A DNA stretch of 64,000 nucleotides from a virus. Taxonomy: Duplodnaviria > Caudoviricetes. The stretch is from IMG/VR virus record IMGVR_UViG_3300035497_000258, positions 32,001 through 96,000 of that record; one strand, written 5' to 3'. Below are positions 33,997 through 57,990 of this stretch, piece after piece (the first letter of the stretch is position 1; each line of letters begins with the position of its first letter). Below the pieces are notes generated by a model that saw nothing but the letters and a program-made list of their open reading frames with translations, searched no databases and was not told the origin of the DNA. The translations under genes and the position numbers were made by a program.

Positions 33997-34284
33997 ATGA
34001 AAAAGGCAACGATGATTCTGGTAGCAGGTGCTATCATCGCAATGATGGTTCTTGCAGGATGCAACGCAACGGCTTGCGACTACCACGAAGGTAACTACGG
34101 TGAAACCTACGGCTTAGATGCTTGGGTTGTTGATGAAAACCTGTGGGGTACTGAGGACGGAAACCTCTGGGGCTACGATACAGAGGGATTTAAGGAAGGC
34201 ACCACCTACGTGATGATCCTGGCAGACAGCGATACACCACTAGACCAAACAGATGATGTAGTGTTTGGAGTGTATGAAGAGTAA
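33997..34284 (+). CDS. Small acidic lipoprotein
   Basis: MKK, hydrophobic stretch, then LAGC lipobox; AAAGGA RBS. Confidence 0.75.
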   Translation: MKKATMILVAGAIIAMMVLAGCNATACDYHEGNYGETYGLDAWVVDENLWGTEDGNLWGYDTEGFKEGTTYVMILADSDTPLDQTDDVVFGVYEE

Positions 34285-34536
34285 GCAAACAAGAGAAGGA
34301 AGAACAAAAGTTCTTCCTTTTTCTTTTGTAGTAATAGGTTACACAAGTACACGTAACTAGGTAACGTGGAAATCCAGTATTTTCCAAAACTGGTAAGATC
34401 TGGATTCAGCGCTTTGCACAATTCGACCGTGCGCATTTTGTCTATTTTGCCGCTTGTATTTCTGCTGTTTTCTGGTATAATGGAACCAAGATAAGGGAAG
34501 CGGATAACCCACTGAAACCGCAGAAAGGGATGCACT

Positions 34537-34737
34537 ATGACTAGATACAACAAAAGACTGAACGTGACATTCAATGTCATTGAAACAGAAGCGGAATACA
34601 AGGCAGAAGGTTTTGAGAACCATGAAATTTCCCTTGTCATGGAACACGATAGATTGTACAACCTTGACGTGATGGGATGCACCACGCCGGGTGAAAGAGA
34701 AAGAATGTTTGAACTGGTGGAAATACTTGGATTGTAA
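34537..34737 (+). CDS. Hypothetical early protein
   Basis: Own promoter (TGGTATAAT), RBS and terminator hairpin. Confidence 0.65.
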   Translation: MTRYNKRLNVTFNVIETEAEYKAEGFENHEISLVMEHDRLYNLDVMGCTTPGERERMFELVEILGL

Positions 34738-34867
34738 GGGCGAAAGCCCTTACTTTCTTTTGTAGAAATACACAATTCTAGCCTTCTGTTTTTGTGTATT
34801 TTACTACTTGCGGAAACGGTAGATTCATGGTATACTTTAGTCAAGATAAAGAAAGGAAGTGCTCCTA

Positions 34868-35011
34868 ATGTATGAATTTACTTTTCGTGATACCCTGACC
34901 AGTGAGATTATCATCCTCTTTGGCTATGATACCAAAGACGCATTTGAAAGAACGACTTTGGATAACAGTAACTGGAGATACAAATTTATAAGGATGGATG
35001 AAGCAGACTGA
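34868..35011 (+). CDS. Hypothetical 47-aa early protein
   Basis: Promoter, AAAGGAAG RBS and hairpin. Confidence 0.5.
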   Translation: MYEFTFRDTLTSEIIILFGYDTKDAFERTTLDNSNWRYKFIRMDEAD

Positions 35012-35187
35012 GGGGCAATGCCCCTCTTTCTTTTGGACAAACTGGCTACATGGTTACGCGTATCTAGGTAACCAGAGTTTGGCACTTTGCACAAATACAG
35101 CTTCAATTCTTTGGTTATTCTGCCTCTTGCTTTCTTTGAGAATTATGGTATAATAAATACAGAAATTAAGAAAAGGAAGTGCTCCAA

Positions 35188-35355
35188 ATGAAAATGACGA
35201 TTGAAGAATTGAGAACCGAATGGGCCGCATGGTGGGACGTTCATCCTGAAGCTGATGATATCGGCGCTATGATTTGCGGGTTTGCGGATGCTCACTCTAG
35301 TAACTTCGAAGAGTACAAGGAACTTGTCGAAGATATCTATGAGGTGTTCTACTAA
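35188..35355 (+). CDS. Hypothetical 55-aa early protein
   Basis: Promoter TGGTATAAT, RBS and AGAGGGCGAAAGCCCTCT terminator. Confidence 0.55.
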   Translation: MKMTIEELRTEWAAWWDVHPEADDIGAMICGFADAHSSNFEEYKELVEDIYEVFY

Positions 35356-35687
35356 GAGGGCGAAAGCCCTCTTTCGTCATTCTGCACAAAAATAATTTTC
35401 GTCAAATTGCACAAAAAATAAATTTGTTAGATTACACAAACTTTGAACGAGATTTTTGTGCACTTTGACCAATTACCAAAATTGGAAATTTTTGGCGACG
35501 GCGGCGCGCTTTCGACTGCTAAAGAGGAAGCGCGCCGTTTTTCCAATTATTTACATTTATACCGGAATTTTGATTGGTAAAAGCTGGAAATAAACCATTT
35601 TCTTCCATTCCCAAAATCTTCCAAAACTGGAATTGTAACTTCCAGAAATTGGTAAGGAAAAAATTTCCAAATCTGGAAGTAGCGCCT

Positions 35688-35915
35688 GCTTTCGCACGCT
35701 AAAGTGCTAAATACCTATTACCTAGTAGGTAAATGGGTAATCCGCTCGAGCGGCCGGGCAACCACTTTAGCACGCTAAAGTTCTAAAGTTTAGTGTGTTA
35801 AACCTACTAACCTAGTAGGGAAGTAGCTTTTGGGTTACACAGTTACGCGTATCTAGGTAACTAAACCTACTAACCCGGTAGGTAAGTCCGCTTTAGCAGT
35901 GTAAAGCGTAAAAGT
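35688..35915. repeat. Second CTTTAG/CTAAAG cluster with CCTACTAACCTAGTAGG repeats
   Basis: CTTTAGCACGCTAAAG, TTTCGCACGCTAAAG, and three CCTA(T/C)T(T/A)ACC(T/C)(A/G)GTAGG copies. Confidence 0.75.
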
Positions 35916-36490
35916 CCGAATTTGCGCACCCCATTCCATTATACCAGATTTTTTACCCGCTGTCCATTGACAAACTAGACAAAAAATTGATCCCGAATTT
36001 GTACACTTCGACGAATCGTGATTTTGCACAAATTTTGATCCCGGTTTTTGTGCAGGTTTACTAATTATGCAGATTGCACAAAGCAGGAGGTGAAAATTCG
36101 TGTACTTTGACGGATCCGGAAATTTGCACAAAGTTTGCGGGCGCCGATTGTGCAGGATGACGGCAACAGTTTGTCTACTGGGATCGGCTGGTAAACCTGG
36201 AAGCTAGATCCAGATTTTTTGTGCAGGCTGCACAATTTTGAGATCAAAATTTTGCTGTTATTTGTGCATTTAGGCTCTGGACAAACCAGGGGCGGCGGGT
36301 GTATAATGGGGGCACAGTTAAGGAAGGGACCCAAATCTTTGAAGGGAGAGCGGGCACGCGCACAAGGGGCCTCTTCCGGGCGGGCATAGGTCAGAATGCC
36401 CCGTGTACCTTGAAAACTGAATACCGGCATTTTCCAAAAACTACCAACACATATGGCTTTATGGCCTGATTCAAGAAAGGATTGTTTTAC

Positions 36491-36817
36491 ATGAAAACAA
36501 GAGAACGTGTAACACTGAAGGAATATATGCGTGTTGTGGAAAACCGCCCTGATTACTGGAATATCGACAGCATTGAGGTTGTTGTCCATACTCACTACGA
36601 TTGGTGGAAAAGAAAAACCCATAGATATTCCCCTTGGGAAATTCCTGCTGATTCCCACCTGTGGAATATGGAGATTCAAGCCGCCTATGTTCACCGGTTC
36701 GATGCCCCATATCTCCACTATAGGGACCTGTGCATCTACATTCTGGATGATGTTGACCCATTCTTTCCGAACGGTAGAGGTCTGGATCTAACCATGCTCC
36801 CCATCGAATTCATCTAA
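36491..36817 (+). CDS. Hypothetical early protein
   Basis: AAAGGATTG RBS and downstream hairpin. Confidence 0.65.
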   Translation: MKTRERVTLKEYMRVVENRPDYWNIDSIEVVVHTHYDWWKRKTHRYSPWEIPADSHLWNMEIQAAYVHRFDAPYLHYRDLCIYILDDVDPFFPNGRGLDLTMLPIEFI

Positions 36818-36891
36818 CCCCATAGGGCGCCGGGGTTTATACCCCGGCTTGCCCTGGCACCTTATCCGCTCGCTGATTCAAGAAAGAAGGT

Positions 36892-37119
36892 ATGTATATG
36901 GAATACAAATACTTCCTCTGCCAGGTGTGTGACCCTAACCCTGAATTCCTTAAGGACGGTGACAAGTTCATAAGGGCTTATATGGTTCATCATATGCCTT
37001 ATGGCGAACGACTTGAACCTAACGTTGAACTTTGGTTCATCCGCTACGAAAGAATCCGGGAAATCACAGAAGAAGAAGCAGAAAGACTCATGGTAAAAGA
37101 AGGTCTTTACTTCCTGTAA
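36892..37119 (+). CDS. Hypothetical early protein
   Basis: RBS and downstream hairpin. Confidence 0.6.
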   Translation: MYMEYKYFLCQVCDPNPEFLKDGDKFIRAYMVHHMPYGERLEPNVELWFIRYERIREITEEEAERLMVKEGLYFL

Positions 37120-37175
37120 TAACAAACATATCGGCCGGGGTGAAATTCCCCGGCCCACAAGAAAGGACGATACAC

Positions 37176-37499
37176 ATGACACTGAATGAGTACTATTCCA
37201 AGCTCTGGAACACTGAACACTACATCTCCGACATTGGCGAAACTTACCTCGAGCTTGGCAAGTCCACTATCCCGCTGTCTATGCTTGACAGTGATGACTG
37301 CCTCTGGAACTTCCGTGTTCTGTCTGCCCGGCAGAGCGATATCTGCTCTTGCCCCGACCTGTACGTCGAAATTGCCTATGACCCCAATGAAGATATCTGG
37401 GAAGCCTTCGGTATCTGCTTCATTGATAAGCCCTACGAATATGAGGAATGGGTTGACCTCGATGAAGAATGGGTCCTCTGCGAGGAATATGCAAAGTAA
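37176..37499 (+). CDS. Hypothetical acidic early protein
   Basis: AAAGGA RBS before ATG 37176; downstream hairpin. Confidence 0.65.
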   Translation: MTLNEYYSKLWNTEHYISDIGETYLELGKSTIPLSMLDSDDCLWNFRVLSARQSDICSCPDLYVEIAYDPNEDIWEAFGICFIDKPYEYEEWVDLDEEWVLCEEYAK

Positions 37500-37559
37500 G
37501 ACACAACAACAAAAGCCGGGGCTTATTGCCCCGGCGCAACAAAAGAAAGGATGATACAT

Positions 37560-37766
37560 ATGACACTGAGAATTTTCTTCCAGATCCCCGACCTTAGCGA
37601 TTATGACGAAACAAGGATTCATTACACAACTGAAAGCGGCAAGGCTGTTGCACGCCTTATTGAAGAAATTCCTCCCGACTCCCCCGTTTGGGACTACCAG
37701 GTTACCGACGCCGCCCCAATCAAATGGAAATCTACAACTGAATATGAAATATTCACCATACACTAA
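37560..37766 (+). CDS. Hypothetical early protein
   Basis: RBS and terminator GGGGCC-tatat-GGCCCC-T run. Confidence 0.6.
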   Translation: MTLRIFFQIPDLSDYDETRIHYTTESGKAVARLIEEIPPDSPVWDYQVTDAAPIKWKSTTEYEIFTIH

Positions 37767-37985
37767 GGGGCCTATATGGCCCCTTTTCTTTTGAAAATCG
37801 CATATGTTCCTTACTCCAGCAGCGCCCCGTTGGAAAATTCTACCAATTTGTATATGAAATTTTTCATTTCAATCCTATATGAATTTTGTACAGGTCTCTA
37901 GCCCCAAATTTGTGCACTTTGCCTCTTGCGGGGACCCCTGATTTGTGGTAAAATAGACTCAAGATAAAGAAAGGAAGTGCTTCAA

Positions 37986-38234
37986 ATGACAGCTACTTAC
38001 AAAATCGAAACCACCCGCGGAACTTTCGCCTATGACCTGGATTGCGCTGATTTTCCGGCGAATATCAGAACCATTCTCCAAGCAACAGCCGGACTGGTTC
38101 CCACAGATGATACCTGGGCATATGAACTCCTGCATATGGGTATCGCAAGCTTTCAAGGTGAAAATGGATATACCCCGGTCATTTTGGAAACAGAAGAAAA
38201 CAGAATTTGGACCTACCTGCCAGCTTTGGAATGA
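37986..38234 (+). CDS. Hypothetical early protein
   Basis: Promoter, RBS and hairpin. Confidence 0.6.
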   Translation: MTATYKIETTRGTFAYDLDCADFPANIRTILQATAGLVPTDDTWAYELLHMGIASFQGENGYTPVILETEENRIWTYLPALE

Positions 38235-38806
38235 GGGCCTATATGGCCCTCTTCCTACTTTGAAAGCAAAAGGAAAGAAATTGCGGACTCCCCTGCTACG
38301 TAGCTTTCATATGACTCGTTTCATATCACTATAGGGCAGGGACTCCCGCATTTCTTTTCTTACCAGTTTCCTTCTATTGTTTTATTTATTTCAAATAATT
38401 TTTTATAATAATTATAAAGAAACGGATAAGACTTCATTTTTAAAATAAGATACCCCTTAAAATAAAAAATTACTTAGAATTTGAAATAAAAATATTTACT
38501 TTTATCCCAAAATTTGTAATTAAAGATTTGGCGGCGCGCCTTCGGGCGTCCAGGAGAAGGCGCGCCGAGTTTCCAAATAATTACAATTATACCACATTTT
38601 TCGCTCGAAATCTATATGCAGGTTGCATAAAGTTCTAGTCCCAGAATTGTACAATTCGCCGAATCGTCAAATTATACAAAAATTTTTATTTTTCTCGCCC
38701 CGTTTTTGTAGAAGCTCACACTTGAAATTCTCCTTGTCCTCTGGTATAATGTAATCAAGATAAGGGAAGAGGAAAACCCACTGAACCTCAGAAAGGATTG
38801 ATAACT

Positions 38807-39145
38807 ATGAAAAACCTGTATCTCGCTTATCCCGGCACCTGCTTTGAAATCCCCAACTCCGCATATGAGTATATGGTCACCACTGGCGATAATGTGGTGA
38901 ATCTCTGGACCGGTGAGCTGATGCCCACTTACAAGTTCATCGAACGATATGGCCTCTCCGATGGATACCGGGAACACCACTATTTGGTTGAAGATATGGA
39001 AACTGGTGAAGTCATCCTCGTCTGCGCCTATATCCCCAAAGATGCCCTGAAGATTGCCTTTGAGCAACTTCGCTGGATGAACGCTCGTATCGTGGATGAA
39101 TACACTGAACTCGAGGCCGAGCTTTCCGGTCTGGATGAACTTTAA
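38807..39145 (+). CDS. Hypothetical early protein (YxVED motif shared with 40296-40709)
   Basis: TTGAAA-17-TATAAT promoter; AAAGGATTG RBS. Confidence 0.65.
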   Translation: MKNLYLAYPGTCFEIPNSAYEYMVTTGDNVVNLWTGELMPTYKFIERYGLSDGYREHHYLVEDMETGEVILVCAYIPKDALKIAFEQLRWMNARIVDEYTELEAELSGLDEL

Positions 39146-39162
39146 GAAAGGGGCTGGTACAT

Positions 39163-39615
39163 ATGATTCTTTGCTTTGACCTTGACGGCACCGTGGCTGA
39201 CCTTTATGGGGCCTCTGATTGGCTTTCTAGCCTAGAGGGAGAAAGAGCTGGGACATTTTCCCAGCTCAATCCCCTGGTCGATATGACCCGGCTTTCTGAA
39301 ATCTGCTACGCCCTAAAAGACGCCGGATGGAAAATTTTGGTAATCACCTGGTTGCCAAAAAATGCCTCTCCCGACTATGAGGCCACCTGCACTGAGGAAA
39401 AGGAAGATTGGGTATGGAATTATATGCCATACGTTGATTCCTTCCATGCTCTCCGGTATGGCACCCCTAAGCAGTCCGTGATTCCATATCGAAACAAGGC
39501 AGTACTTGTGGATGATAGCTTAGAAGTGCGGGCAAGCTGGAACTCCCCCAAAAAGCGGACTAGCATTGACCCTGCAAATAATCTCCTCCAAAATCTGGAA
39601 AGGCTCCTGGGTTAA
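39163..39615 (+). CDS. HAD-superfamily phosphatase (5'(3')-deoxyribonucleotidase-like)
   Basis: FDLDGTVAD motif I, IT motif II, K motif III, LVDDS motif IV. Confidence 0.8.
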   Translation: MILCFDLDGTVADLYGASDWLSSLEGERAGTFSQLNPLVDMTRLSEICYALKDAGWKILVITWLPKNASPDYEATCTEEKEDWVWNYMPYVDSFHALRYGTPKQSVIPYRNKAVLVDDSLEVRASWNSPKKRTSIDPANNLLQNLERLLG

Positions 39616-40295
39616 ATCCCAGGGGCCAGGAAAAAGGGGGTTGACAAATCTCAAAAAATATGGTATAATTTCAGTATCAAAAGAAAGGAATGAAAGATAT
39701 GCGGTTTCTCAAGGTATGTGGGGTTATGTTTCTCGCCTGGTTCTTGCTTAGCTTCATCGAAATCACGCTCTTCAATTCTCACCCCGGCGCAACATACTCC
39801 ACCTTCAACTTCTTCAATATGCTGTTCTGAGAGGGTTGATACCCATGAAAAAATTCTACGTTGATTTCACCGGCTGGTGCGAAATCACAGCCAAAGATGA
39901 GAAAGAGGCACGGTATAAGTTTGAATCTTATATCGCAGAAAACAAGCCTTTGCCTTGCAACATCTACGAGGTACAAAACGTCAAAGAAAAAGACGTAATA
40001 GATTGGAATGATTAAAGTTTAGTTCCAATTCGGCATTTTGCACAAATAAAAATTTTGTGCATTTTGCCTATTGACGGGCCGCCCATTATACCAAAAGCGG
40101 GCGGCCCGCAATCCAGCGCTGCGGGCCGAATTTTGCCATAAACTTCCATTATAGCAGATTTTTTACAGCTTGTCAACCAGCAATCTGCACAATTTTATCT
40201 TCCCGAATTTGTGCAACTTTCCATCTTGCAATCCCGCACACCCTGTGCTATACTATAATTGTTCCAAGGAAAGGAACAGAAAGGATTGATACATT

Positions 40296-40709
40296 ATGTT
40301 CAAACTGAAAGATGACCCTCGCTTCCTTATCCGCTCTGAGCGAGATATCCGCGCGCTTGACCTGGGCACTCATTTTGTACCCCTGGATGAAGAAAACTGC
40401 GAGTGTATTGTCACTCGTGGGCAGTGCGGGGATGACAAGGCCATTATTATGGTATGGAACGATGATTTCTTCATCTTCCCCATATGGCAATTTGCCGACT
40501 TCTGGCATGATGACCTCTACGGCGAATACCTGTTCTATGAGGTAGAAGATACCATGTCAGGAAAACGGTTCCAACTTCGGGCTTTCTCCGCCAAGAGCGC
40601 AGAAGAAAAAGCATATGATATTCTCAACTGGCGAGTGAAAGTCAACCGTATCGTGGTAGACCCAGAAGCGAACGGGCAGGTTCCGGCTCTCTGGTTCGAT
40701 GGTGACTAA
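40296..40709 (+). CDS. Hypothetical early protein
   Basis: Promoter, AAAGGATTG RBS and hairpin. Confidence 0.65.
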   Translation: MFKLKDDPRFLIRSERDIRALDLGTHFVPLDEENCECIVTRGQCGDDKAIIMVWNDDFFIFPIWQFADFWHDDLYGEYLFYEVEDTMSGKRFQLRAFSAKSAEEKAYDILNWRVKVNRIVVDPEANGQVPALWFDGD

Positions 40710-40754
40710 AGGAACGGGGCTATATGCCCCGTCCTTGAAACAAAAGGAGGTAAT

Positions 40755-41234
40755 ATGGATTACAAGCTGTTGGCACTTTTTATCGTGCTAAATATCATCA
40801 ATGTGATTATTTCCACCATAAAGTCCATCGCCACGGTAAAGTGCGGGAAGGGTGGCGCAGCGGTGGCGAATGCCCTCGGTTATGGTTTTTATACCATCGT
40901 TGTGGTTTATATGGTGAGTGACCTGCCCTTGTGGGCAAAGGTCTTGGTAGTCGGTGGATGTAACCTTGTAGGGGTGTATATCGTTAAGGCTATCGAAGAA
41001 AAAATTCAGAAAGAAAAGCTATGGAAAATCGAATTGACAGTGAAGAACTCTCAGGCAGAGAAACTGCACAAGGAACTTTCTGGATTCAAAATCCCGCACA
41101 ACTACATTGAAAACGTGGGCAAGTGGACTATTTTTAATGTCTACTGCGCTACTAAGAAAGAAAGTGCTTTCGTTAAGGAAGTAGCAGTGAGAAACAATGC
41201 AAAGTTTTTCGCAAATGAAACAAAGATTCTCTAG
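40755..41234 (+). CDS. Small membrane protein (DUF5698/DUF2179-like), ends at TAG
   Basis: Three hydrophobic N-terminal segments plus a soluble C-domain; AGGAGG RBS. Confidence 0.65.
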   Translation: MDYKLLALFIVLNIINVIISTIKSIATVKCGKGGAAVANALGYGFYTIVVVYMVSDLPLWAKVLVVGGCNLVGVYIVKAIEEKIQKEKLWKIELTVKNSQAEKLHKELSGFKIPHNYIENVGKWTIFNVYCATKKESAFVKEVAVRNNAKFFANETKIL

Positions 41235-41247
41235 GGAGGGATTTGGT

Positions 41248-41511
41248 ATGATAAAACGTATCTATTACAAGGAGATGAGCAAACTCGCCGCAGGGCTACA
41301 AAGACGTGGCACTAGGTTCGTTATCCGCACTTACCAAGGCGGGTTACAGATTCTCTGCAAGGGAAGAGGGTGGGACGCAATTTGTCACGACTATTCTTAC
41401 GGACATGAAGATGGGTTACTTGAAGTCATGGGGCTTCCGCAATGCAACGGTGACGTTATCGGTTACTTAACCGCAGAAGAAATTCTGAAAATGGTGGATG
41501 AAAACTCTTGA
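41248..41511 (+). CDS. Hypothetical protein (DAICHDYSYGHEDGLLEVMG motif)
   Basis: GGAGG RBS directly after the previous TAG. Confidence 0.65.
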   Translation: MIKRIYYKEMSKLAAGLQRRGTRFVIRTYQGGLQILCKGRGWDAICHDYSYGHEDGLLEVMGLPQCNGDVIGYLTAEEILKMVDENS

Positions 41512-42244
41512 CAACTCTTAGGTTTGGTGCTATAATAAGACTATCAAGAACAGAAAGGATTGATTAAACGACATGAAATGTAAAGACTGTCCCTACGCCT
41601 GGGAAGAAGATGACAGCGGTATCTTGGTATGCCACTGCGAAGAAGCAACAGCCCCGTGTGAGGAAGGAGAAGATGATGAAGTTCCAACTTAACTTTGAAG
41701 GTTGGTATGAAACCGAAGCAAATCTCGAAGAAGAAGCGATAGAAGAACTCGAAGCGTTTTTTGAATCGCTTCCCGGACTTAAAGACCTGGATATCTGGGC
41801 CGAAGAACAGGAGGATGATTAACCGGGAGAAATCCCGGTTAATTTTTGTGCAATTTGACTATTGACAAACAGCTTCGAGTGTGCTATAATTGGCGGGCCG
41901 CCAACGCCCAAGCGGCCCGAATTTTCCATAAATTTCCATTATACCACATTTTTTCTCCGCTGTCAATAGGCAAAATAACCAAACCTGGGATCCCGAAATT
42001 GTGCAAGTTGACGAAGGCGCGAATTTCCAAAATTTGGAAGGCCGCGGACCCTCCCCCTTCATTATACCACGGGTGCACGCCGCTTGTCAATAGGCAAACC
42101 GCACAAATTTGATCCCCGGATTTTGTGCAATATTCCATGTTGTGTTTTCGCTATTTTTCTGGTATACTAATAGTGTTCCAAGGGGAACGCAATCCGGTAG
42201 GGGACACGATGGTAAACCCCTATCTAGTGAAAGGACTTGATATT

Positions 42245-43225: not shown

Positions 43226-43337
43226 CGGATACCAAGATTTATGGTATAATAACTACGTTGTCAAGGGAAGGGCAAAACCTTCTTGACAAATACATCAAAG
43301 ACAAGGACAGTCTCAAAAACCAGAAAGGATTGATACT

Positions 43338-43700: not shown

Positions 43701-43749
43701 ACCTTATCGGGGAAGGGGTAAAACCCTTCCCCCTTGAAAGGGGGATTCA

Positions 43750-44151: not shown

Positions 44152-44181
44152 CACCCGCTCCCGCACGGAGAAAGGAATACC

Positions 44182-44936: not shown

Positions 44937-44955
44937 TAGAAAGGATTGATAGCAA

Positions 44956-49859: not shown

Positions 49860-50192
49860 ATGGACTTCAACGAAATTATTAACTCTTACCTTGAGGAAGG
49901 TTACACCGAAGAGCAAATTCGAGAAGCTTTTTCCAACAACCTCGAATCCGCTACTTCCAAGAATTGGTACGCAGATACCACTCTTCCCTACACTGCAATC
50001 GAGTATCTCAAGAACTACATCGCAAAAATCTATCAAGAGGCAAAAACAATCGAGTTCTCCGAGAAAGACCTCAATGATTTCACAGACCTTGCGGATGAGG
50101 CTGTTCGTAGTACACTACTTACCTACCACAAACTCTCTAACTCCGACTTAGCTACTTCTTTGCGGGAGCTGGAGAATTTACTCTTCCACTAA
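49860..50192 (+). CDS. Hypothetical protein
   Basis: Promoter and RBS. Confidence 0.6.
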   Translation: MDFNEIINSYLEEGYTEEQIREAFSNNLESATSKNWYADTTLPYTAIEYLKNYIAKIYQEAKTIEFSEKDLNDFTDLADEAVRSTLLTYHKLSNSDLATSLRELENLLFH

Positions 50193-50311
50193 CCTCGATA
50201 CAAAGATACCAGTAAGCGGCGTTCCCGCTTGCGAAATTTCAAAAAATATTATAAAATAAAATAAAAACAAAACAACGAGGGTGTAAGCCCCGAGTAAAGG
50301 AGAAAATTAAA

Positions 50312-50704
50312 ATGGAAAAGATTACTAAGCGTGATATGTATAAGGCAATTATCGAATTCGTTGGCGGCGAGGATCTTGCCTATCCCGCAGATGATGTTGT
50401 TGCGTTCTGCGAAGCCGAAATCAATATCCTTGATAAGAAGGCCGAGGCAGCTAAGGCTCGCGCAGAAGCTAAGCGCGCAGAGGGTGATGCTCTTCAGGAG
50501 CGCATTTTCTCGGTTCTGTCTACTGAGGAGTTTATGACTGTTGAGGAGATTCTCGCTGCTCTTGATGACGAAGACCTCAGCTCTCAGAAGATTATTCCTC
50601 GACTGAACAATCTGTTCAAGTTCGACAAGATCGAGAAGGAAGATGTTACTACTCAGAATTCTCAGGGCAAGAATAAGAAGAAGGTTGGTTATAAGGCCAT
50701 CTGA
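50312..50704 (+). CDS. Putative winged-helix DNA-binding protein
   Basis: AAGGAG RBS, biased codons, terminator; resembles 43338-43700. Confidence 0.6.
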   Translation: MEKITKRDMYKAIIEFVGGEDLAYPADDVVAFCEAEINILDKKAEAAKARAEAKRAEGDALQERIFSVLSTEEFMTVEEILAALDDEDLSSQKIIPRLNNLFKFDKIEKEDVTTQNSQGKNKKKVGYKAI

Positions 50705-50804
50705 TTTTAAGGGAGGGCGAAAGCTCTCCCTTGTTTTTTAATTCTTTGTGTGTCACGAAATTACAATTATTTTATTACCTGTGCCCACATTTTTAAGGAG
50801 AAAT

Positions 50805-50996
50805 ATGAATCATAAAGACGAACCTAGAAATACATACGTCAAGTTTAGAGTTACAGAACGAGAAAAAAATAATCTTCGTGCGTTTTCAAGAATTACTGGA
50901 TTATCAATTTCAGAACTAATTAGAGAAAGATGTGAAGCTTTACTAAAAGGAGATGACTTATGGCTAGACGAGACTGTTACATCAGATGTAGAGTAA
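50805..50996 (+). CDS. Ribbon-helix-helix (MobC-like) protein
   Basis: YVKFRVTEREK...GLSISELIR. Confidence 0.65.
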   Translation: MNHKDEPRNTYVKFRVTEREKNNLRAFSRITGLSISELIRERCEALLKGDDLWLDETVTSDVE

Positions 50997-51157
50997 CAGG
51001 AGAAGAAAAGATGATTCTCGAAAACTACGCAAAACACTCAAACTTAAGCTTAAGCGATTTTATTCGCCATGGGTGTCAATTAGCTGTAACCGAGATTGAC
51101 GATAAACTCGACTTTCAAGAAAACTTTGAAAGATATTGTAAAGGAGTAAATAAATGA
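50960..51157 (+). CDS. Ribbon-helix-helix (MobC-like) protein
   Basis: YIRCRVTGEEK...NLSLSDFIR. Confidence 0.65.
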   Translation: MARRDCYIRCRVTGEEKMILENYAKHSNLSLSDFIRHGCQLAVTEIDDKLDFQENFERYCKGVNK

Positions 51158-51315
51158 AAGAGAAAGTCATTTATACTAAAAGAATTGCTTATGAACTTAG
51201 ACTACAAGGTTTTAAAATCCTTAGAACTGGCATAAACAAAAACTATCCTCAATTTACTACTTGGATTTTTGAAGATACAAAAGAACTAAATGACGCTCTC
51301 TCTAACTTAAAATAA
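51154..51315 (+). CDS. Hypothetical 53-aa protein
   Basis: AAGGAG RBS; operonic arrangement. Confidence 0.55.
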   Translation: MKEKVIYTKRIAYELRLQGFKILRTGINKNYPQFTTWIFEDTKELNDALSNLK

Positions 51316-51321
51316 AGGAGA

Positions 51322-51657
51322 ATGTCAAATATGCCAAATTATATACAAGCTCCTACCCTAGTTCAAAATGGAGTAAAACAAAAGGAAAATGATAAGAATT
51401 TCTACCTACTACCGCAAACCCTTATGGACAAAATATTTAATGAATTAGGCAATAGATCTGCGGAAGTGCGGTTAATGGTGATATTAGTCGGTACTAAACC
51501 TGGGTTTAAATTATCTGATGCTTGGGTACAAGAAAGAACCGGTCTAAGTCATGCATCTTATAATCGAGCTAGAAATTCTCTAATAGAAAGAGAATGGTTA
51601 AGTTATAATAAAATCTCAAATGAACTTATTATAAACTATGATAATATCTATAAATGA
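51322..51657 (+). CDS. Winged-helix protein, replication-initiator-like
   Basis: LSDAWVQERTGLSHASYNRARNSLIEREWL HTH-like pattern; followed by direct repeats. Confidence 0.55.
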   Translation: MSNMPNYIQAPTLVQNGVKQKENDKNFYLLPQTLMDKIFNELGNRSAEVRLMVILVGTKPGFKLSDAWVQERTGLSHASYNRARNSLIEREWLSYNKISNELIINYDNIYK

Positions 51658-51727
51658 TGTAATACCATAATACACCATATGATGTAATATCATAATACAC
51701 CATAGAGGTAATACCATGATACACATA
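51655..51727 (+). repeat. Three tandem ~25-bp iteron-like direct repeats
   Basis: TGATGTAATACCATAATACACCATA / TGATGTAATATCATAATACACCATA / GAGGTAATACCATGATACACATA. Confidence 0.75.
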
Positions 51728-51809
51728 ATATATAAAGGGGTAAATAGATAAAAAGAACAAATAAATAAGCGGCTTCGCCGCCTGTTTGGCGCACTTCAGT
51801 TTTATTTTA

Positions 51810-51846
<37 letters not shown>

Positions 51847-51971
51847 TATATTACCTTTAAGCAATGTGTACACATTTACAGAAACAATTAAAAATTCCCA
51901 TCAAGGCGTATAAAACAACTAACACTAACTCATACAACAAACTCTAATTTATTAAAACAGGAGGACGTAGA

Positions 51972-52742
51972 ATGAAATATTCTCTAACTGTAGGAAATAA
52001 ATACCTAGAATCCGCAGATGAAGTAACGTGCGGATGGAACAGGCTAGGAGACGTATATGATCTCGTTAAAAAGAACCCTAACCGCAGATATAGAATCCTA
52101 TTTCCAGAATCTAGTGAAACAGACTATAACAAACTCCTACAACAAGTAACTCTAATTAAAGCATTAACTCCAAACTATACAATAGCAACGAAGGATTTCC
52201 ATATTCTGCAAAAACTAGTAAATTCTGGAAACAACGCCTACCTCAATCTCCCCGTCACAGACTGGGATACTTTTTCCCAGCTGGAATCCGCAGGTGTATC
52301 TGACGTTCTAGTAGCAGGACCCCTAGGTTTTCAAATGAATACCATCGCCCGCCGCAAATCTCAATCCAGTATTGTCATCAGAGCCCGTCCCGCGCACCCT
52401 TCCACACTTCTTCCTACTGTTTCAATCTCTGACTTTTACATCCGTCCAGAAGATCTTCAATACTACACTGCAATCGACTACCTAGAATTTGATGTCATCT
52501 ATCGTGATGAAGAAGAATCTTTCTATTCTCTTTACCAAAAGACTTCATTTCCCTTCAATCTCTCTCTCCTGATTCATGACCTAGAACCTTCGGTACCAAG
52601 TATCTACATTCCCGCAGAATTTGGAGAACAAAGAGCAAACTGCGGGCAGCGGTGCCGTGAAGCGCCTCAAAGCTGTAGATTCTGTACTACTTGTGCGCGG
52701 TCCGCGGCTATGATGGAACTTTATTCTAAGTCGCAATCTTAA
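51972..52742 (+). CDS. Hypothetical protein with C-terminal CxxxC...CxxC cluster
   Basis: 256-aa ORF; AGGAGG RBS. Confidence 0.7.
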   Translation: MKYSLTVGNKYLESADEVTCGWNRLGDVYDLVKKNPNRRYRILFPESSETDYNKLLQQVTLIKALTPNYTIATKDFHILQKLVNSGNNAYLNLPVTDWDTFSQLESAGVSDVLVAGPLGFQMNTIARRKSQSSIVIRARPAHPSTLLPTVSISDFYIRPEDLQYYTAIDYLEFDVIYRDEEESFYSLYQKTSFPFNLSLLIHDLEPSVPSIYIPAEFGEQRANCGQRCREAPQSCRFCTTCARSAAMMELYSKSQS

Positions 52743-52795
52743 TTTATTTATAATAAAAAATATAATATTATATTTATATAAAGAAGGAGGGCCTT

Positions 52796-54172
52796 ATGGA
52801 TATTAACGAAATTACAAATCAGATAGAAGCAGTTATCTCCAACGTTGAAGATTTTGGGGAGCGGGAACCAGATTTTGGTAAAATTGTAAATTTATGGAAA
52901 ATCCGCAAGGCCCGTTTCATCGAACTCTTCGGCGGAGAACCCATCTATGAAATTCCTAACTCTATTACTATTGAATTAAATGAAGAACAAAAGACTCAAA
53001 TGTTTAGTAAACTACTGAGCCAGATGTCTCACGAAGGCGCCGATGAAAAATTTATCGAGTTCCTTGAAAAAAATGAATCTAGCTTTTACGAGAATCGAGT
53101 CTCCTATCCGGCCGAAGGAACTGATATGAAGGAAGGGGCTAAATTGCTAAAGTCCTTCAAATACGTTCTTCCTCCTGATTCTTTACGGAAGTGCCAGGAC
53201 ATTGCGTCGCGAGTAATCCAACAGAACAAAGTAACAGGAAAACTTTGTTTCTCAGTGCATCCGCTAGATTATATTACGATTTCCCAGAATAATTGCGGAT
53301 GGAGTAGTTGCCACTACATTGAGGGAGACTATCGTGCGGGTAATTTCTCCTATATGCTAGATTCTTCTACTGTTGTTGTATATCTTAAAACAGAAGAAGA
53401 TACTCATCTTAAGTATTTTCCCGAAGAACTTGAGTGGAATAACAAAATTTGGCGTATGCTAATCCACATTACTAAATCTGGGAAAATAATCCATTACAAT
53501 AAGCAGTACCCATTCTTTTCTTCTGTTTTAATGGATGAAGTTAGACGCAATTATCCTGGACCGCAGCAAGACGATCTTGAATGTACCGGTTTCAGCAAGA
53601 TTGATAACGACTCAGGAACGCACTTTCCGCAAGTACCCGGATTTATTTTAAATGGTTTTATCACTTCTTATGACGATATTGTAGAGGATAAAAGCGATAC
53701 TTTAGCTTATAACGACATCTTAGCTTGTAACAATTTTAATCCTTATCTTTCTCACGCAAGAAGTATTACTCTTTTAAACTACTCACGCGAGGACCGCAAA
53801 GCTACTAAAGAAAAATTGCGAGTAAAAGTAGGCTCTTTAGTACCTTGTCCTTGCTGTGATAAAACTCTCGATGATTCTGAACATTATATCTGTACTTCTT
53901 GCGCAGAAGCTGCTCAAAGATTTGAACTTGGTCTTGACCTGTGTGATAATTGTAAAGATGAATTTTATAAAGAAGAATTGATAGAATTTAAAGGTAAAAA
54001 ATATTGCGCCGAATGTTTCTTTGAAATGGAAGAACTTGATCGAGAAGAAAGAGGCGTACAACTTTGTTATTGGTGTGGAGAAGAATACGATATTGAAGAT
54101 ATGAAGATGCTGGATGATGAACCCCACTGTCCGCACTGCTATGAAGAAAGGATGGCGAAATTAAATGATTGA
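52796..54172 (+). CDS. Phage protein with SVHPLDY...WSSCH motif and C-terminal Zn-finger repeats
   Basis: 458-aa ORF; multiple CxxC pairs. Confidence 0.75.
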   Translation: MDINEITNQIEAVISNVEDFGEREPDFGKIVNLWKIRKARFIELFGGEPIYEIPNSITIELNEEQKTQMFSKLLSQMSHEGADEKFIEFLEKNESSFYENRVSYPAEGTDMKEGAKLLKSFKYVLPPDSLRKCQDIASRVIQQNKVTGKLCFSVHPLDYITISQNNCGWSSCHYIEGDYRAGNFSYMLDSSTVVVYLKTEEDTHLKYFPEELEWNNKIWRMLIHITKSGKIIHYNKQYPFFSSVLMDEVRRNYPGPQQDDLECTGFSKIDNDSGTHFPQVPGFILNGFITSYDDIVEDKSDTLAYNDILACNNFNPYLSHARSITLLNYSREDRKATKEKLRVKVGSLVPCPCCDKTLDDSEHYICTSCAEAAQRFELGLDLCDNCKDEFYKEELIEFKGKKYCAECFFEMEELDREERGVQLCYWCGEEYDIEDMKMLDDEPHCPHCYEERMAKLND

Positions 54173-54319
54173 TGTAATTATGGGCATTGTATGGGCTTGC
54201 TTTGGTGGAGTAGATGTATATCTCTCTCTGAATGGCCGACCTGACTGTATAGTAGGAACAGTTCCCTGTTTCTTCCTGGCTATTCTACATTTTATGAGTA
54301 TTATCTAAGGAGGATATTT

Positions 54320-54625
54320 ATGGCACGTAGAGGCGATATTGCACGTGAGAAGGTTGTAAAGACTATTACGGAAGCTTTTGGAAACGCATATTTAGGAACA
54401 GAAGCGAAGAAGCTATACGTGGTAGCGGATGACGGAGATGAAAAGATTCAGTTTTCTATTAGCATCACAATGCCGAAAGCTGAATTTGATCCTGCGCGAG
54501 CCGAAGCTCCAAAGCCCACTAACCCTAACGATTGGACTACCGATGACCCTGCTCCGAAGAAAGTTGAACCTACTGCCGCAGACCAAGCGAAGGTTGATTC
54601 TCTTCTAAAGATGTTGGGCCTTTAA
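54320..54625 (+). CDS. Hypothetical protein
   Basis: AAGGAGG RBS and terminator. Confidence 0.65.
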   Translation: MARRGDIAREKVVKTITEAFGNAYLGTEAKKLYVVADDGDEKIQFSISITMPKAEFDPARAEAPKPTNPNDWTTDDPAPKKVEPTAADQAKVDSLLKMLGL

Positions 54626-54725
54626 CTCTTCTTTTGATTTTAAAGCTCTGCGGATGCAGAGCTTTTTATTTTTTTAAAAAAATACATTATAATATTTATA
54701 GAAAGTTGAGAGAGGAGAAAAGTTC

Positions 54726-54962
54726 ATGGAGATTTCTAAAGAGGATGCAAAAATTTTGTTAAGCACTATTAAAGAACTTAAGCAGCAGAAGCAGCAACTC
54801 TTAGATGCTCTTCTTATCGCTGGAAAATATGCACGAGAGAATCTTCCTGCTGCTTTTCCTTCTGATTCTTATTATGCCAATATCTATGTTAATGGCACAA
54901 ACCGTGATCCCGAAGGTAGAGAGTTCGCAAATTATTGGTTCCATTTAGCTAGAAAGGATTGA
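54726..54962 (+). CDS. Hypothetical protein
   Basis: Promoter and RBS. Confidence 0.6.
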   Translation: MEISKEDAKILLSTIKELKQQKQQLLDALLIAGKYARENLPAAFPSDSYYANIYVNGTNRDPEGREFANYWFHLARKD

Positions 54963-54966
54963 TATT

Positions 54967-55440
54967 ATGTCAACAGCACCTTCTTTTGCAAACTACAAGC
55001 GTCTTTCTGACCCATACGAGAAAAATGGAAAGATGTACATAGATGTCGAGCATCCCAATACCAAGAATCGACGCGCCGTCCGCTGGTATACTGAGGGTGA
55101 GGTAGCTAAGAATTACGGGAAGAAAGTCAAGGAAGAAGAACCTAAAGATTTAAAGCGGGTGCGCGGGTTCTCTAAAGGTCCAATTCTCGTTATTCGTGGA
55201 ATCCGCACTAAAGCAGATGAAGAATGGTGTCAACTCTCTAATGCACGATATGCGGTAGGTATTGGGTGGCATATTGTCTCAGAAGAAACCCTCCCTGAGC
55301 AGTGGCCGCCGCATTTTAAATTCCTTCTGCTTGGATGGAATGAAGCTTCTTATGATGATAAGCATCTTAAATCCGCGAGCGACATTGCGAATATCCTTAC
55401 AGCTAAAGAAAAGAAAGGGGAGTATATCAACTTTGGGTGA
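54967..55440 (+). CDS. Hypothetical protein
   Basis: AAAGGATTG RBS; 157 aa. Confidence 0.65.
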   Translation: MSTAPSFANYKRLSDPYEKNGKMYIDVEHPNTKNRRAVRWYTEGEVAKNYGKKVKEEEPKDLKRVRGFSKGPILVIRGIRTKADEEWCQLSNARYAVGIGWHIVSEETLPEQWPPHFKFLLLGWNEASYDDKHLKSASDIANILTAKEKKGEYINFG

Positions 55441-55643
55441 TTTAACAGCAGTCTGTACTGTTCATTTCTTCGTAGATAACGAAGAACTAAAAGACAATAT
55501 TGTTATGACTAATGTAAGTTCTTTAGTAGAAGTTAGCGAAAGACTTTATGCTTACTACAAAGATGATTTATATAGCGTAACTATTTCGCTTATTGACTCT
55601 ACTTTCCTTGAGATTACTGATGAAGAAAAGGAGAAGATTCTAA

Positions 55644-56075
55644 ATGGAAAAGATTGAAATCTATAGAGCAGAAGATGGAACTGATTTTGAGGATGAAAAC
55701 TCCTGTATTGCATATGAAGTAGGTCTTAAATTGAAGGAAGTACAGGGAGAACTTTTCCTCTACGATTGCGATGGAGAAATTACTCCTAATGAAGATGTCG
55801 AACTTGAGGAAGTTGGTTTTATTCATTTTGCAACTCCGAGAGCCGTTGAAGCACTTATCCAAATTCATGACCTTCAGGACTATTGGATCCCTGAAGAATT
55901 GAGATACGCGGAAGCTCCTGCATATTTCTTCTATGACTATAGAGAGGGCGATTGGAAGAATCTGAAAGAAGAATACGAAAGACTGGATAGCTATGCTGAA
56001 GTTATGGGCGCAAGAAGATCTTCCTTTATTTTTGACGTTGATAATGATGGAGAGTGGACAAAACTGGAAGATTGA
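55644..56075 (+). CDS. Hypothetical protein (IYRAxDGTDF family)
   Basis: Similar to the adjacent 56108-56476. Confidence 0.65.
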   Translation: MEKIEIYRAEDGTDFEDENSCIAYEVGLKLKEVQGELFLYDCDGEITPNEDVELEEVGFIHFATPRAVEALIQIHDLQDYWIPEELRYAEAPAYFFYDYREGDWKNLKEEYERLDSYAEVMGARRSSFIFDVDNDGEWTKLED

Positions 56076-56107
56076 GCATTTCCAGATTTTGGTAGAGGAG
56101 GTAAAAT

Positions 56108-56476
56108 ATGGAAATCATCTATAGAGCTCCCGATGGCACTGATTTTACAAGTAGAGAAGCCTGTGAGAAATACGAACTCGAGAAATATAAAGATGAAATT
56201 CATCTTTATAGCAAAGATTTTGAACCTTTGGCATTAAACCACGATTATCTTGAATTTGTAGTTTATTGCTATTGCGAAACAGACGAAGCGGCTGTAGCTT
56301 TGCACGATTTCTATGAGGCTGACTTAACTTGGGTCTCGCCTTATCACGAATTTAAGCAGCCGACCGCGGGTATCTATTATTACAGTAATAATTGCAATAA
56401 ATTCCTTAAACTTGAAGATGAAATGACTCGTCTAAATAACATTAAAGAAAGAATGTGTGTTGGACAAAAACATTAA
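56108..56476 (+). CDS. Hypothetical protein (IYRAxDGTDF family)
   Basis: Similar to 55644-56075; GAGGAGG RBS. Confidence 0.65.
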   Translation: MEIIYRAPDGTDFTSREACEKYELEKYKDEIHLYSKDFEPLALNHDYLEFVVYCYCETDEAAVALHDFYEADLTWVSPYHEFKQPTAGIYYYSNNCNKFLKLEDEMTRLNNIKERMCVGQKH

Positions 56477-56694
56477 ATTCCTTAAATAAAATTTTTAAAA
56501 GGAGATATAGCTATGCTGATTAAAGTTGATATGCAGTCCCCTAAGACTTGTGCGCAGTCTATTTGCAACCTCGATATTAACCTCTCTAAACCTGCGGAAA
56601 CCGCCGATGCCATTAAGAACTCTGTTATCTTTCCTTTTGCTTATCGCAATGGAATTTCTGAAACAAAAGTAAAGTGGAACTGGGAGGTATGTTA

Positions 56695-57183
56695 ATGCAA
56701 GATATTATTGAAATTCAGGGCTATAAACTCCTTATCCTCGATGAAAATAGATTCTGCTATAAAGCTATGGTTTTAAACTCTGAACTGACTAGTACTTATA
56801 CTAATATTGTAGAGGAATGTGATTATTGGTTTAAAACATTTCCTCTTAAAAACATGGTAACCGAACTTAGAGAGGTAAATAATACTCCTCTATATGGTGG
56901 ATATAGGAGTGGAAGAGCTGGTTTGTGTTTGCCTCTATCTTTTGATGAATACCGCAAATATCAAGATATCATAGTGAAATATGATAAACGAATCCAAACT
57001 TTGTTATTTACGTCTTGGACGGATAAAGAAGGCGCGATAATGCTGAAAGGTGGAATTACTCATATAGGAAGGGACTCTGTTGTTCCTGTTGCTCCTATCA
57101 TTATGATTTCAAAGGATGCTTTACTGCTTTCTTCTGCTTCTACTGAGGCTTTAATTGAGGAACTACGTAAAAGAGTTCTTTGA
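56695..57183 (+). CDS. Hypothetical protein
   Basis: GGGAGG RBS; ATG overlaps the upstream TAA. Confidence 0.55.
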   Translation: MQDIIEIQGYKLLILDENRFCYKAMVLNSELTSTYTNIVEECDYWFKTFPLKNMVTELREVNNTPLYGGYRSGRAGLCLPLSFDEYRKYQDIIVKYDKRIQTLLFTSWTDKEGAIMLKGGITHIGRDSVVPVAPIIMISKDALLLSSASTEALIEELRKRVL

Positions 57184-57233
57184 AATTTTAAGAAATTTAT
57201 TATATAATGTATATAGAAAGTGAGGGAACCGAT

Positions 57234-57473
57234 ATGAGTTATTTCAGTTATGAAGTTAAGGTTTATTCTACGGAAGCTTGCACAACACTTGAATCTTATC
57301 AAGGTATCGTAACTGCTGAGGATTACCATAAAGCTATGGATCAAGTGATGGATTTTTATGGGGCTGAATATCTTAGTAGTATTCGTCTTGAGGACTGGGA
57401 AACTGAAGGTACGGTTCTTGAGCTTACTGAACAGGCAATTCGTGACTTGAGAGGAGACGAAGCAAATGGATAA
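57234..57473 (+). CDS. Hypothetical protein
   Basis: Promoter and RBS. Confidence 0.55.
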   Translation: MSYFSYEVKVYSTEACTTLESYQGIVTAEDYHKAMDQVMDFYGAEYLSSIRLEDWETEGTVLELTEQAIRDLRGDEANG

Positions 57474-57986: not shown

Positions 57987-57990
57987 TTAT

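Follow-up and report, generated by a model that had tools for sequence, protein, structure and literature searches.

The stretch of DNA analysed here very probably belongs to a phage with genetic code 15, whose early genes are free of in-frame TAG and can be read either way, whose late genes depend on a suppressor, and whose lone TAG stop in an early gene is a difference between strains. The window (the whole stretch analysed) comprises 64,000 nt, positions 32,001-96,000 of the record IMGVR_UViG_3300035497_000258, and all coordinates below are those of the window unless another genome is named. Its source appears to be a tailed phage reading TAG as Gln; the size of its relative G002 (~94% identical; 136,132 bp, a record 79% complete by CheckV) points to a genome of at least ~136 kb, and a long tail is suggested by the long tape-measure gene. 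Gene calls come from a simple program of our own, unvalidated as a gene finder, that applies dynamic programming to codon usage. We use "late block" for the minus-strand calls of 1-32219 and "early block" for the plus-strand calls within 33997-57473. An initial annotation had proposed that TAG has a dual use in this DNA, as a stop in an early gene translated in the host code and as sense in late genes.

The late block (1-32219, minus strand) encodes structural and packaging functions, and TAG is a sense codon there. Its 26 genes (9,749 codons) contain 217 in-frame TAGs, distributed over 22 of them, and 511 off-frame TAGs. When TAG is read as sense, long fused ORFs result whose full-length products match PHROG families of tail, portal, and virion proteins, for example the portal gene (24720-26306, minus strand, nine TAGs; PHROG portal, E = 5e-85) and the tape-measure gene (3832-10932, minus strand, 83 TAGs), which becomes an ORF of 2,366 aa. 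Terminase-like pieces and homing endonucleases lie on the same strand within the block, and its first gene (31581-32219, three in-frame TAGs) matches a PHROG family labelled "sigma factor." The initial annotation held that the late genes need TAG as Gln: the sense reading is indeed required, and Gln is the most likely residue given the pattern of exchange between strains. The window and G002 share 148 TAG codons, while 54 positions pair TAG with another codon: CAA/CAG in 24 cases, AAA/AAG in 10, AAT in three, GAT and GAA in two each, and 13 further codons once each. Since TAG exchanges mainly with CAA/CAG, the pattern points to Gln. The tRNA-CUA of G002 has a D-arm similar to that of the phage tRNA-Gln(UUG) and shares its discriminator G. 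The partition of TAG is not strictly early versus late, because the late block also holds TAG-free genes (e.g. capsid-like, 21670-22701; HNH endonuclease, 11052-11903) and in G002 TAGs also occur in some genes of the replication type (six in a RecJ-like and eight in a RuvC-like gene).

A divergent region with no confident gene call (32220-33996), within which the sign of the GC skew flips, separates the late minus-strand block from the early plus-strand genes. The latter begin with a first TAG-free block (33997-46015, plus strand) of small ORFs, mostly of unassigned function, with a GC content of 0.41-0.46 and strong sigma-70-like promoters. A second TAG-free block (49860-57473, plus strand) encodes ribbon-helix-helix-like (NikA-like/DUF6290) small proteins and others without an assigned function. 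Plus-strand calls cover 63% of the first block and 89% of the second, and repeated promoter/operator elements occupy the call-free gaps of the first. Between the two, a three-gene island on the minus strand (46222-49561) breaks the uniformity of 33997-57473, with TAGs in two of its three genes (46222-46911, none; 47736-48431, five; 49139-49561, four). Seven 12/12 TTGACA-17/18-TGnTATAAT sites were found in the window, all of them at 39.6-44.5 kb, a region also provided with repeated promoter/operator modules, and scans of 11.7-31.6 kb and 49.5-64 kb gave no perfect extended -10 sigma-70-type promoter. We take 33997-46015 as the early region; the early status of the plus-strand block is assigned solely from such promoter-like consensus sites. 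Downstream, an array of eight tRNAs (57901-59843, plus strand; Leu-taa, Phe-aaa, Gly-tcc, Leu-tag, Gln-ttg, Ile-tat, Lys-ttt, and Ser-gct by ARAGORN, with seven Rfam tRNA matches) is followed on its 3' side by tail-fibre-like genes (60015-64000, plus strand; Mtd_N domain, tail-fibre PHROGs) with zero to three in-frame TAGs each.

The observation in the initial annotation that early and middle plus-strand ORFs lack internal TAG holds on a systematic count. A single in-frame TAG occurs in the 4,809 codons of the 47 early calls, and it lies in a doubtful, low-score call of 40 aa (34274-34396). Internal TAGs are thus far from equally frequent in the two blocks (1/4,809 vs. 217/9,749 codons): at the late-block rate ~107 would be expected (Poisson P ~3.5e-45). 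The same early calls contain 120 off-frame TAGs (73 + 47 in the two other frames), and the in-frame and off-frame counts differ between early and late genes (Fisher P = 7e-16). With calls restricted to at least 50 aa and a score of at least 9, 34 calls with 4,092 codons remain, with no in-frame and 65 + 42 off-frame TAGs. The depletion is not circular, because 45 of the 47 calls end in TAA (27) or TGA (18), the other two in TAG, and so are the same ORFs under both codes. For 38 of the 47 a match is present in G002, with 132, 101, and 528 differences at codon positions 1, 2, and 3, and 402 synonymous against 151 non-synonymous codon changes; on this pattern, the called frames are real coding frames under purifying selection. 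Being TAG-free, the early genes give the same proteins whether TAG is stop or Gln. They form a contiguous set readable either way, in keeping with the proposal that they are translatable in the host code, and the early block is better termed TAG-free or "dual-coded" than described as using TAG for stop.

Could the early block be TAG-free simply as a mosaic of standard-code imports, or through its composition, with no selection and no timing function? The early region is indeed mosaic, since G002 lacks a counterpart for nine of the 47 early calls. Homologues of the gene at 40755 are scattered over many metagenome bins, and the GC content at 34-46 kb exceeds the 0.32-0.36 of most of the late block. 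Yet composition alone does not remove TAG, because the same genes contain many TAGs out of frame. The second TAG-free block has a GC content of only ~0.35-0.40. In G002, a block of 14 kb with 23 genes (4,547 codons) is likewise without in-frame TAG. Recent imports would moreover predict a TAG-stop rate near that of a donor, such as the 7/73 annotated CDS ending in TAG in the standard-code relative Enterococcus phage EF1, whereas only three of 167 calls in G002 end in TAG, all three doubtful. We therefore regard an origin of the pattern by import or composition as unlikely.

The latter figures suggest that TAG is avoided as a stop too, nearly everywhere (G002 vs. EF1, Fisher P = 0.01); the early block of the window alone, compared with EF1, gives a difference that is not significant (1/46 vs. 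7/73, P = 0.15). One of the two TAG-ended early calls, at 39641-39751 (36 aa), was treated as spurious, because its start coincides with a 12/12 TTGACA-17-TATAAT promoter. The other, a gene for a small membrane protein of 159 aa (40755-41234, plus strand), is the only well-supported TAG-ended gene in the window. Its end is as first described: the sequence reads AAG ATT CTC TAG GGAGGG ATTTGGT ATG, with the TAG at 41232-41234, the ribosome-binding site GGAGGG at 41235-41240, and the ATG of the next gene, which ends in TGA (41235-41511 with its ribosome-binding site, plus strand), at 41248. Among 884 candidates, 854 are homologues of the protein at E <= 1e-3; most of the 120 listed are 157-159 aa long, and in 17 of 18 aligned homologues the C-terminus falls at the TAG column. 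The TAG is the natural C-terminus of the gene family. For the family itself, no Pfam model scored above cut-off (best, Phage_holin_3_6, E = 0.034, 14.6 bits against a cut-off of 28.4), and a link to UPF0316/YebE comes from the name "YebE (UPF0316 family)" that one source gives to one 69%-identical relative.

The stop codon itself is not shared. In the two closest relatives, G002 and G004 (~94% identical), the protein is 100% identical and TAA stands in place of TAG; pattern scans for further copies of the stop site returned only these two TAA copies, and the 37 informative related genes end in TAA (30) or TGA (seven), never in TAG. The "dual use" of TAG is not supported in the form first proposed, since it comes down to one strain-specific codon. 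The TAG is probably a recent, derived or polymorphic third-position change from TAA. As the lone well-supported case is TAA in the relatives, early genes do not use TAG as stop, and given the near-general avoidance of TAG stops, the lone TAG is not evidence for two codes. One might instead ask whether the true codon is TAA, with the G at 41234 introduced in sequencing or assembly or representing a minor variant. Only one transition separates it from the two relatives, and the scans found no further TAG copy; the window, however, differs from G002 at ~6% of positions there, mostly third codon positions, and shows no sign of low sequence quality. Given two, zero, and 18 differences at codon positions 1, 2, and 3 within the gene, one more at a third position is unremarkable, and we consider an error very improbable.

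The same codon raises the question of whether early proteins, too, could be subject to the code switch, the gene giving a product of 159 aa at first and, as tRNA-CUA accumulates, a read-through product of 217 aa. We hold this to be very unlikely; if true, a single TAA-to-TAG change would have created a time-dependent isoform switch or switched off an early function. That such a dual use has actually evolved, so that the code switch alters or disables an early protein, is extremely doubtful. In its favor, the TAG sits exactly at the family C-terminus and the frame beyond stays open for 58 more codons. A homologue cluster, P0062 (191 aa), continues with Q past the family C-terminus, P0065 has the same length, and the idea of "isoforms" is raised in general terms in the Mgcod preprint (bioRxiv 10.1101/2022.06.29.495998). 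The extension, to 41408, nevertheless runs out of frame with the next gene, contains a second TAG and aligns to nothing except, loosely, the tail of P0062. Just downstream of the TAG, the strains differ by a 1-nt indel, so that even relatives at 94% identity do not share the extension; the TAA of the two closest relatives and the lack of TAG in all 37 related genes speak against it as well. A related and likewise very unlikely reading sets the switch upstream of late transcription: the sigma-factor-like gene 31581-32219, first in the late block, and the TAG-bearing island genes would need read-through of their TAGs before late transcription begins.

Returning to the preferred model, a code-15 phage with code-neutral early genes and suppressor-dependent late genes, a suppressor is expected, and the search for one gave a mixed outcome. 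None of the eight tRNAs of the window is a tRNA-CUA (ARAGORN, Rfam), but one is present in G002 (80207-80277 of that genome), beside tRNA-Thr and tRNA-Ser, and another in the distant relative G003. Window position 63985 maps to 79445 of G002, which places the tRNA-CUA ~0.8 kb past the equivalent of the window end; it follows the tail-fibre-like gene group and precedes the TAG-free 14-kb block. Release-factor (PF00472) and GlnRS/GluRS catalytic (PF00749) domains were detected neither in G002 nor in the complete, more distant G003. With none in the window, the suppressor of this phage is inferred from the ~94% relative. Early and middle plus-strand genes would be made straight after infection, whether host RF1 stops at TAG or Gln is inserted, whereas late genes (virion, packaging, homing endonucleases) would be completed only once the phage tRNA-CUA is present and charged, presumably by host enzymes. 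In G002, the late-type genes with many in-frame TAGs also include holin, endolysin, and RuvC. The TAG of 40755-41234 would act as a stop while RF1 dominates and, once suppression is efficient, would be read through into the non-conserved 58-residue tail. This order of expression and its gating effect are what we infer from the sequence, and temporal gating of late genes is already the published model.

Recoding has also been proposed, in the discussion of Yutin et al. 2021 (PMC7886860), to act mainly by damaging host translation, host TAG read-through serving as shut-off or anti-defence; early TAG avoidance would then be a by-product. Because phage genes avoid TAG as stop, our data fit this proposal equally well. 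What it leaves unexplained is the concentration of TAG in virion, lysis, and homing-endonuclease genes and its absence from the 4,809 + 4,547 early/middle-type codons of the window and G002, and as the main role of recoding here we find it improbable. Host damage and timing are mutually compatible ideas.

A timed code switch has been modelled by Yutin et al. 2021, by Borges et al. 2021 (bioRxiv 10.1101/2021.08.26.457843) and in the Mgcod preprint. Borges et al. describe a code change during infection in crAss-like, Garnet, Topaz, Jade, and other gut phages. As described there, structural and lysis genes read TAG as Gln, a portion of the genome is readable in the standard code, a suppressor tRNA is phage-encoded (here in the relative), TAG is rare as a true stop, and an intron/homing endonuclease carries recoded stops. 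Our phage belongs to another lineage, the "code change module" of release factor and aminoacyl-tRNA synthetase reported there was not found in its relatives, and the suppressor of G002 lies after tail-fibre-like genes rather than immediately before a lysis cassette. The Mgcod preprint reports a "dual-coded" early block and a "soft switch" in crAss-like phages. As in that pattern, early proteins are near-identical under codes 11 and 15 and late genes need code 15; unlike it, one early gene here, because its stop is TAG, differs between the codes by a 58-residue tail. Four group I introns occur in the window, and group I introns are also a feature of the crAss-like late-gene recoders of Yutin et al.; our window is not crAss-like, the best named matches of its portal being Enterococcus, Bacillus, and Lactococcus phages.

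A closer comparison is with Phass-1 (OQ749652; 135,976 bp), of the proposed genus Phassvirus (Babkin et al. 2023, PMC10607447). By that account, Phass-1 and our phage (or its relative G002) share a size of ~136 kb, a gut metagenome source, TAG suppression in TerL, tape-measure, portal, and tail-fibre genes, and a tRNA-CUA with no dedicated synthetase found; Phass-1 is reported to have three tRNA-CUA and 36 tRNAs, against one and 12 in G002. The portals are 40.6% identical over 89% of their length, and megablast of 36000-46000 and 18000-26400 against a phage collection gave no match, in a search that may leave out near-identical records. Phassvirus has been delimited by ~80-86% nucleotide identity and synteny with Phass-1, BK046881, and BK025033 (PMC10607447). 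Given the lack of megablast similarity, the portal identity and the different tRNA sets, we reject membership in Phassvirus or in the Phass-1 species; the phage is a distant relative of Phass-1 and may belong to a wider monophyletic group.

Overall, TAG-bearing late genes and TAG-free early genes make up an arrangement known from other gut phages, and the questions of how TAG is read against host RF1 and whether recoding times late expression have been posed before; none is new here. Outside the crAss-like phages, our findings add a clean case of block-wise amber recoding in long-tailed phages of ~136 kb, a lineage with a distant relationship to Phass-1 that has received little study. In annotation, table 15 has to be used for the late block, whereas the choice of code makes no difference to the early block.

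When the minus strand of 1-32219 is read with table 11 only short ORFs appear, yet these fuse to long ORFs once TAG is taken as a residue, for example at 3832-10932 (−; 2,366 aa, 83 TAGs) and 24720-26306 (−; 528 aa, 9 TAGs). The fused late ORFs match the PHROG families of tape-measure protein, portal, virion proteins, terminase-like pieces, and homing endonucleases; thus, the window is part of a tailed phage that uses TAG as a sense codon in its late genes. Its portal is 40.6% identical to that of Phage Phass-1 (89% of length) and about 32% identical to the portals of ~140-kb Enterococcus phages, and megablast of 36000-46000 and 18000-26400 against the phage collection, a search from which very close records may be masked, returned no nucleotide match. 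The nearest IMG/VR record, G002 (136,132 bp; 79% complete, CheckV), aligns to window 299-63985 at 83-98% identity, mostly 92-97% and ~94% over the aligned stretches, with several segments replaced; it serves here as a stand-in for the whole genome of the window strain. Two further relatives were compared: G004, also ~94% identical, and the distant, complete G003.

The early plus-strand ORFs had been described as lacking internal TAG, and the counts bear this out. We used a custom and simple gene caller, combining codon-usage log-odds trained on long ORFs with a ribosome-binding-site bonus, whose dynamic programme chooses among ORFs of both codes. At 33997-57473 it placed 47 plus-strand calls (4,809 codons), in which the only in-frame TAG, a doubtful one, falls within a low-score call of 40 aa; the other two frames hold 73 and 47. 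The late block, on the other hand, carries 217 in-frame TAGs in 22 of its 26 genes (9,749 codons), alongside 205 CAA and 83 CAG. Had the early genes the TAG density of the late ones, ~107 would be expected (Poisson P about 3.5e-45). Circularity is not an issue: TAA (27) or TGA (18) closes 45 early calls, which are therefore identical ORFs in both codes, and the other two of the 47 end in TAG. The early frames are also real coding frames: G002 matches 38 of these calls, and the differences number 132, 101, and 528 at codon positions 1, 2, and 3, respectively. Five TAG-bearing plus-strand ORFs (33823-34284, 38032-38448, 39506-40015, 40312-40638, and 45648-45959) were rejected, each of which either extends upstream into promoter or intergenic DNA or lies in an alternative frame over a better-supported gene. 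The stretch is not entirely plus-strand: an island of three minus-strand genes (46222-49561) lies inside the TAG-free region, two of them with TAGs (5 and 4). The proteins of 46222-46911 and 47736-48431 have no significant similarity to each other; the former gene (0 TAG) has no match at nucleotide level in G002, its place there being taken by another gene, which carries 3 TAGs. Within the late block, TAG use is lowest in the capsid-like gene and two neighbouring head genes (21670-24700, −), with 0/13, 1/15, and 2/21 of the Gln-type codons, and reaches about half in tape-measure and tail genes. The same 21670-24700 segment has the highest GC of the late block (0.39-0.43). GC is 0.41-0.46 at 34-46 kb versus 0.32-0.36 in most of the late block, and the GC skew changes sign near 32 kb.

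From its promoters, the TAG-free block is probably the early region. Perfect (12/12) matches to the consensus TTGACA-17/18-TGnTATAAT number seven, all at 39.6-44.5 kb (plus strand, four; minus strand, three), whereas 11.7-31.6 kb and 49.5-64 kb contain none. Those on the minus strand (first hexamers at 40176, 41966, and 42090) run against gene direction. Intergenic DNA at 34-46 kb is built of modules (up to 82 nt long and repeated 5-8 times), with TGCACAA...TTGTGCA palindromes beside the consensus promoters. The modules of 34000-46200 look like an operator/promoter regulon, perhaps one producing antisense transcripts. The GGAGG sites and extended -10 promoters would fit a host among Gram-positive bacteria, perhaps, judging from relatives, in the Clostridia.

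The claim that TAG serves as stop in an early gene came from 40755-41234 (+), which encodes a small membrane protein of 159 aa. The sequence detail is exact: ATT CTC TAG at 41226-41234, GGAGGG at 41235-41240, and ATG at 41248. Among 884 candidates, 854 are homologues at E <= 1e-3, and most of the 120 matches listed are 157-159 aa long. When homologues were aligned together with a read-through version of the protein, 17 of 18 ended at the TAG column, which is therefore the end of the functional protein. The exception, P0062 (191 aa), runs on past the normal family C-terminus, the very next residue being Q and the tail unrelated; this would fit a TAG stop that a gene caller read as Gln in another recoded phage. 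There are two clusters of 191-aa homologues, P0062 and P0065, the former being the one aligned. Read-through of the TAG at 41232-41234 would add 58 residues in a frame unlike that of the next gene and with a second TAG inside, and a 1-nt indel just downstream of the stop means that this tail is not common to the window and G002. Yet the codon itself is not shared. Both G002 and G004 encode a protein 100% identical to the product of 40755-41234 and have TAA at the stop codon. Across 40 related loci, 37 have a readable C-terminus (of the others, two are cut by the contig end and one is out of register), with 30 TAA, 7 TGA, and 0 TAG stops. Pattern scans for the stop-codon neighbourhood recovered only the two known TAA copies from viral contigs and, with two patterns, no copy from metagenome contigs. 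Thus, the window TAG is a single third-position difference in one strain, and the proposed "dual use" of TAG comes down to this strain-specific codon. The only other early call ending in TAG, 39641-39751, starts on a perfect TTGACA-17-TATAAT and is most likely a promoter rather than a gene.

As a stop, TAG is likewise avoided. In G002, 3 of 167 calls end in TAG and all are doubtful: two are ORFs of 50-58 aa, and the third is the upstream half of a gene that is read through. The comparable figure for a standard-code relative, Enterococcus phage EF1 (first 50 kb), is 7 of 73 annotated CDS (Fisher P = 0.01). For the early block of the window alone (1/46) the difference from EF1 is not significant (P = 0.15). 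It is fairer to call the early genes TAG-free and code-neutral than to say that they use TAG as stop.

What, then, does TAG mean in the late genes? Sense TAG restores the long ORFs, and CAA/CAG are its main exchange partners with G002. The window and G002 share 148 TAG codons, and 54 TAG/non-TAG pairs comprise CAA/CAG (24), AAA/AAG (10), AAT (3), GAT (2), GAA (2), and 13 singletons. Although two changes separate CAA from TAG, no partner is commoner, and this favours Gln. The tRNA-CUA of G002 and the phage tRNA-Gln(UUG) have similar D-arms and a discriminator G in common. Against the proteins of G003, too divergent to decide, 35 window TAG positions align to E (5), K (4), Q (4), gaps (4), and otherwise scattered residues. 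Gln is the most likely meaning of TAG in the late genes.

The window itself has no tRNA-CUA, with eight tRNAs detected by ARAGORN and seven by Rfam; its array includes tRNA-Phe(AAA) and tRNA-Ile(UAU), both uncommon anticodons (57991-58061 and 59315-59390). Among the 12 tRNAs of G002, one is a tRNA-CUA (80207-80277) adjoining tRNA-Thr and tRNA-Ser. Since window position 63985 corresponds to G002:79445, the gene would lie ~0.8 kb past the window end. The same trio occurs in G004, and G003 also has a tRNA-CUA. Of the suppressor genes that the initial annotation proposed to look for elsewhere in the genome, the tRNA was recovered in relatives, but not the enzymes: no release-factor or class Ic (GlnRS/GluRS-type) synthetase domain was found in G002 (79% complete) or G003. 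In G003 the tRNA-CUA has 90 nt, the length of a long-variable-arm tRNA, so that TAG may have a meaning other than Gln in that phage; among its tRNAs ARAGORN also lists one whose anticodon has four bases, caat (L051:15354-15443; L052:1409-1485).

The gene content of the two sets can be followed in G002. PHROG assignments of its TAG-bearing genes include a holin (3 TAGs), an amidase endolysin (2), a RuvC-like resolvase (8), a RecJ-like nuclease (6), several GIY-YIG homing endonucleases, and a reverse transcriptase (phrog_1423; 133628-134827, 19 TAGs). Together with a Mtd_N (major tropism determinant) domain protein found among tail-fibre-like genes of the window (60341-60685), the latter suggests a diversity-generating retroelement. 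The 23 genes after the tRNA-CUA have 0 TAG in 4,547 codons. The TAG-free stretch G002:80436-94679 (L039) encodes radical SAM and Ro-like RNA-binding proteins, RNA ligase, polynucleotide kinase, and phosphatases, and looks like an RNA/tRNA repair set. Four group I introns in the window (17552-17802, 28248-28475, 28841-29175, and 29810-30134, all −) score above the Rfam gathering threshold, and three of them break up the terminase-like gene into 27670-28173, 28432-28797, 29079-29711, and 30056-30319. The tape-measure gene, too, seems to be in two parts (13551-14543 and 3832-10932), separated by HNH and other homing-endonuclease genes (11052-11903, 0 TAG; 12494-13375, 8 TAG). The first gene of the late block, 31581-32219 (−; 3 in-frame TAGs), matches the C-terminal half of the PHROG "sigma factor" profile (E = 3e-24) and nothing in Pfam. 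Should its product act in late transcription, that product could itself be made only with suppression.

Similar systems have been described. Babkin et al. (PMC10607447) report ~136-kb TAG-suppressing phages with a tRNA-CUA and no synthetase, and describe Phass-1 as likewise without release factor or synthetase. In the present lineage the 83 TAGs of the tape-measure ORF would have to be decoded efficiently against host RF1, with neither a phage release factor nor a synthetase found in searches of G002 and G003. For crAss-like phages, code 15 is reported to be backed by peptides (Peters et al. 2022). The Mgcod preprint (bioRxiv 10.1101/2022.06.29.495998) shows that a "code 11" block is in most cases dual-coded, and favours a soft switch. 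Borges et al. (bioRxiv 10.1101/2021.08.26.457843) report depleted TAG stops and a strongly recoded intron endonuclease, and propose that early genes are expressed in the host code before suppressor tRNAs permit the structural and lysis genes. Overall, the initial observation is confirmed and its interpretation finds partial support: block structure and natural C-terminus both hold up, and a suppressor is present in a close relative. The putative temporal switch has already been proposed in print; early genes in host code and late genes under suppression are the published model, here applied to a further lineage.
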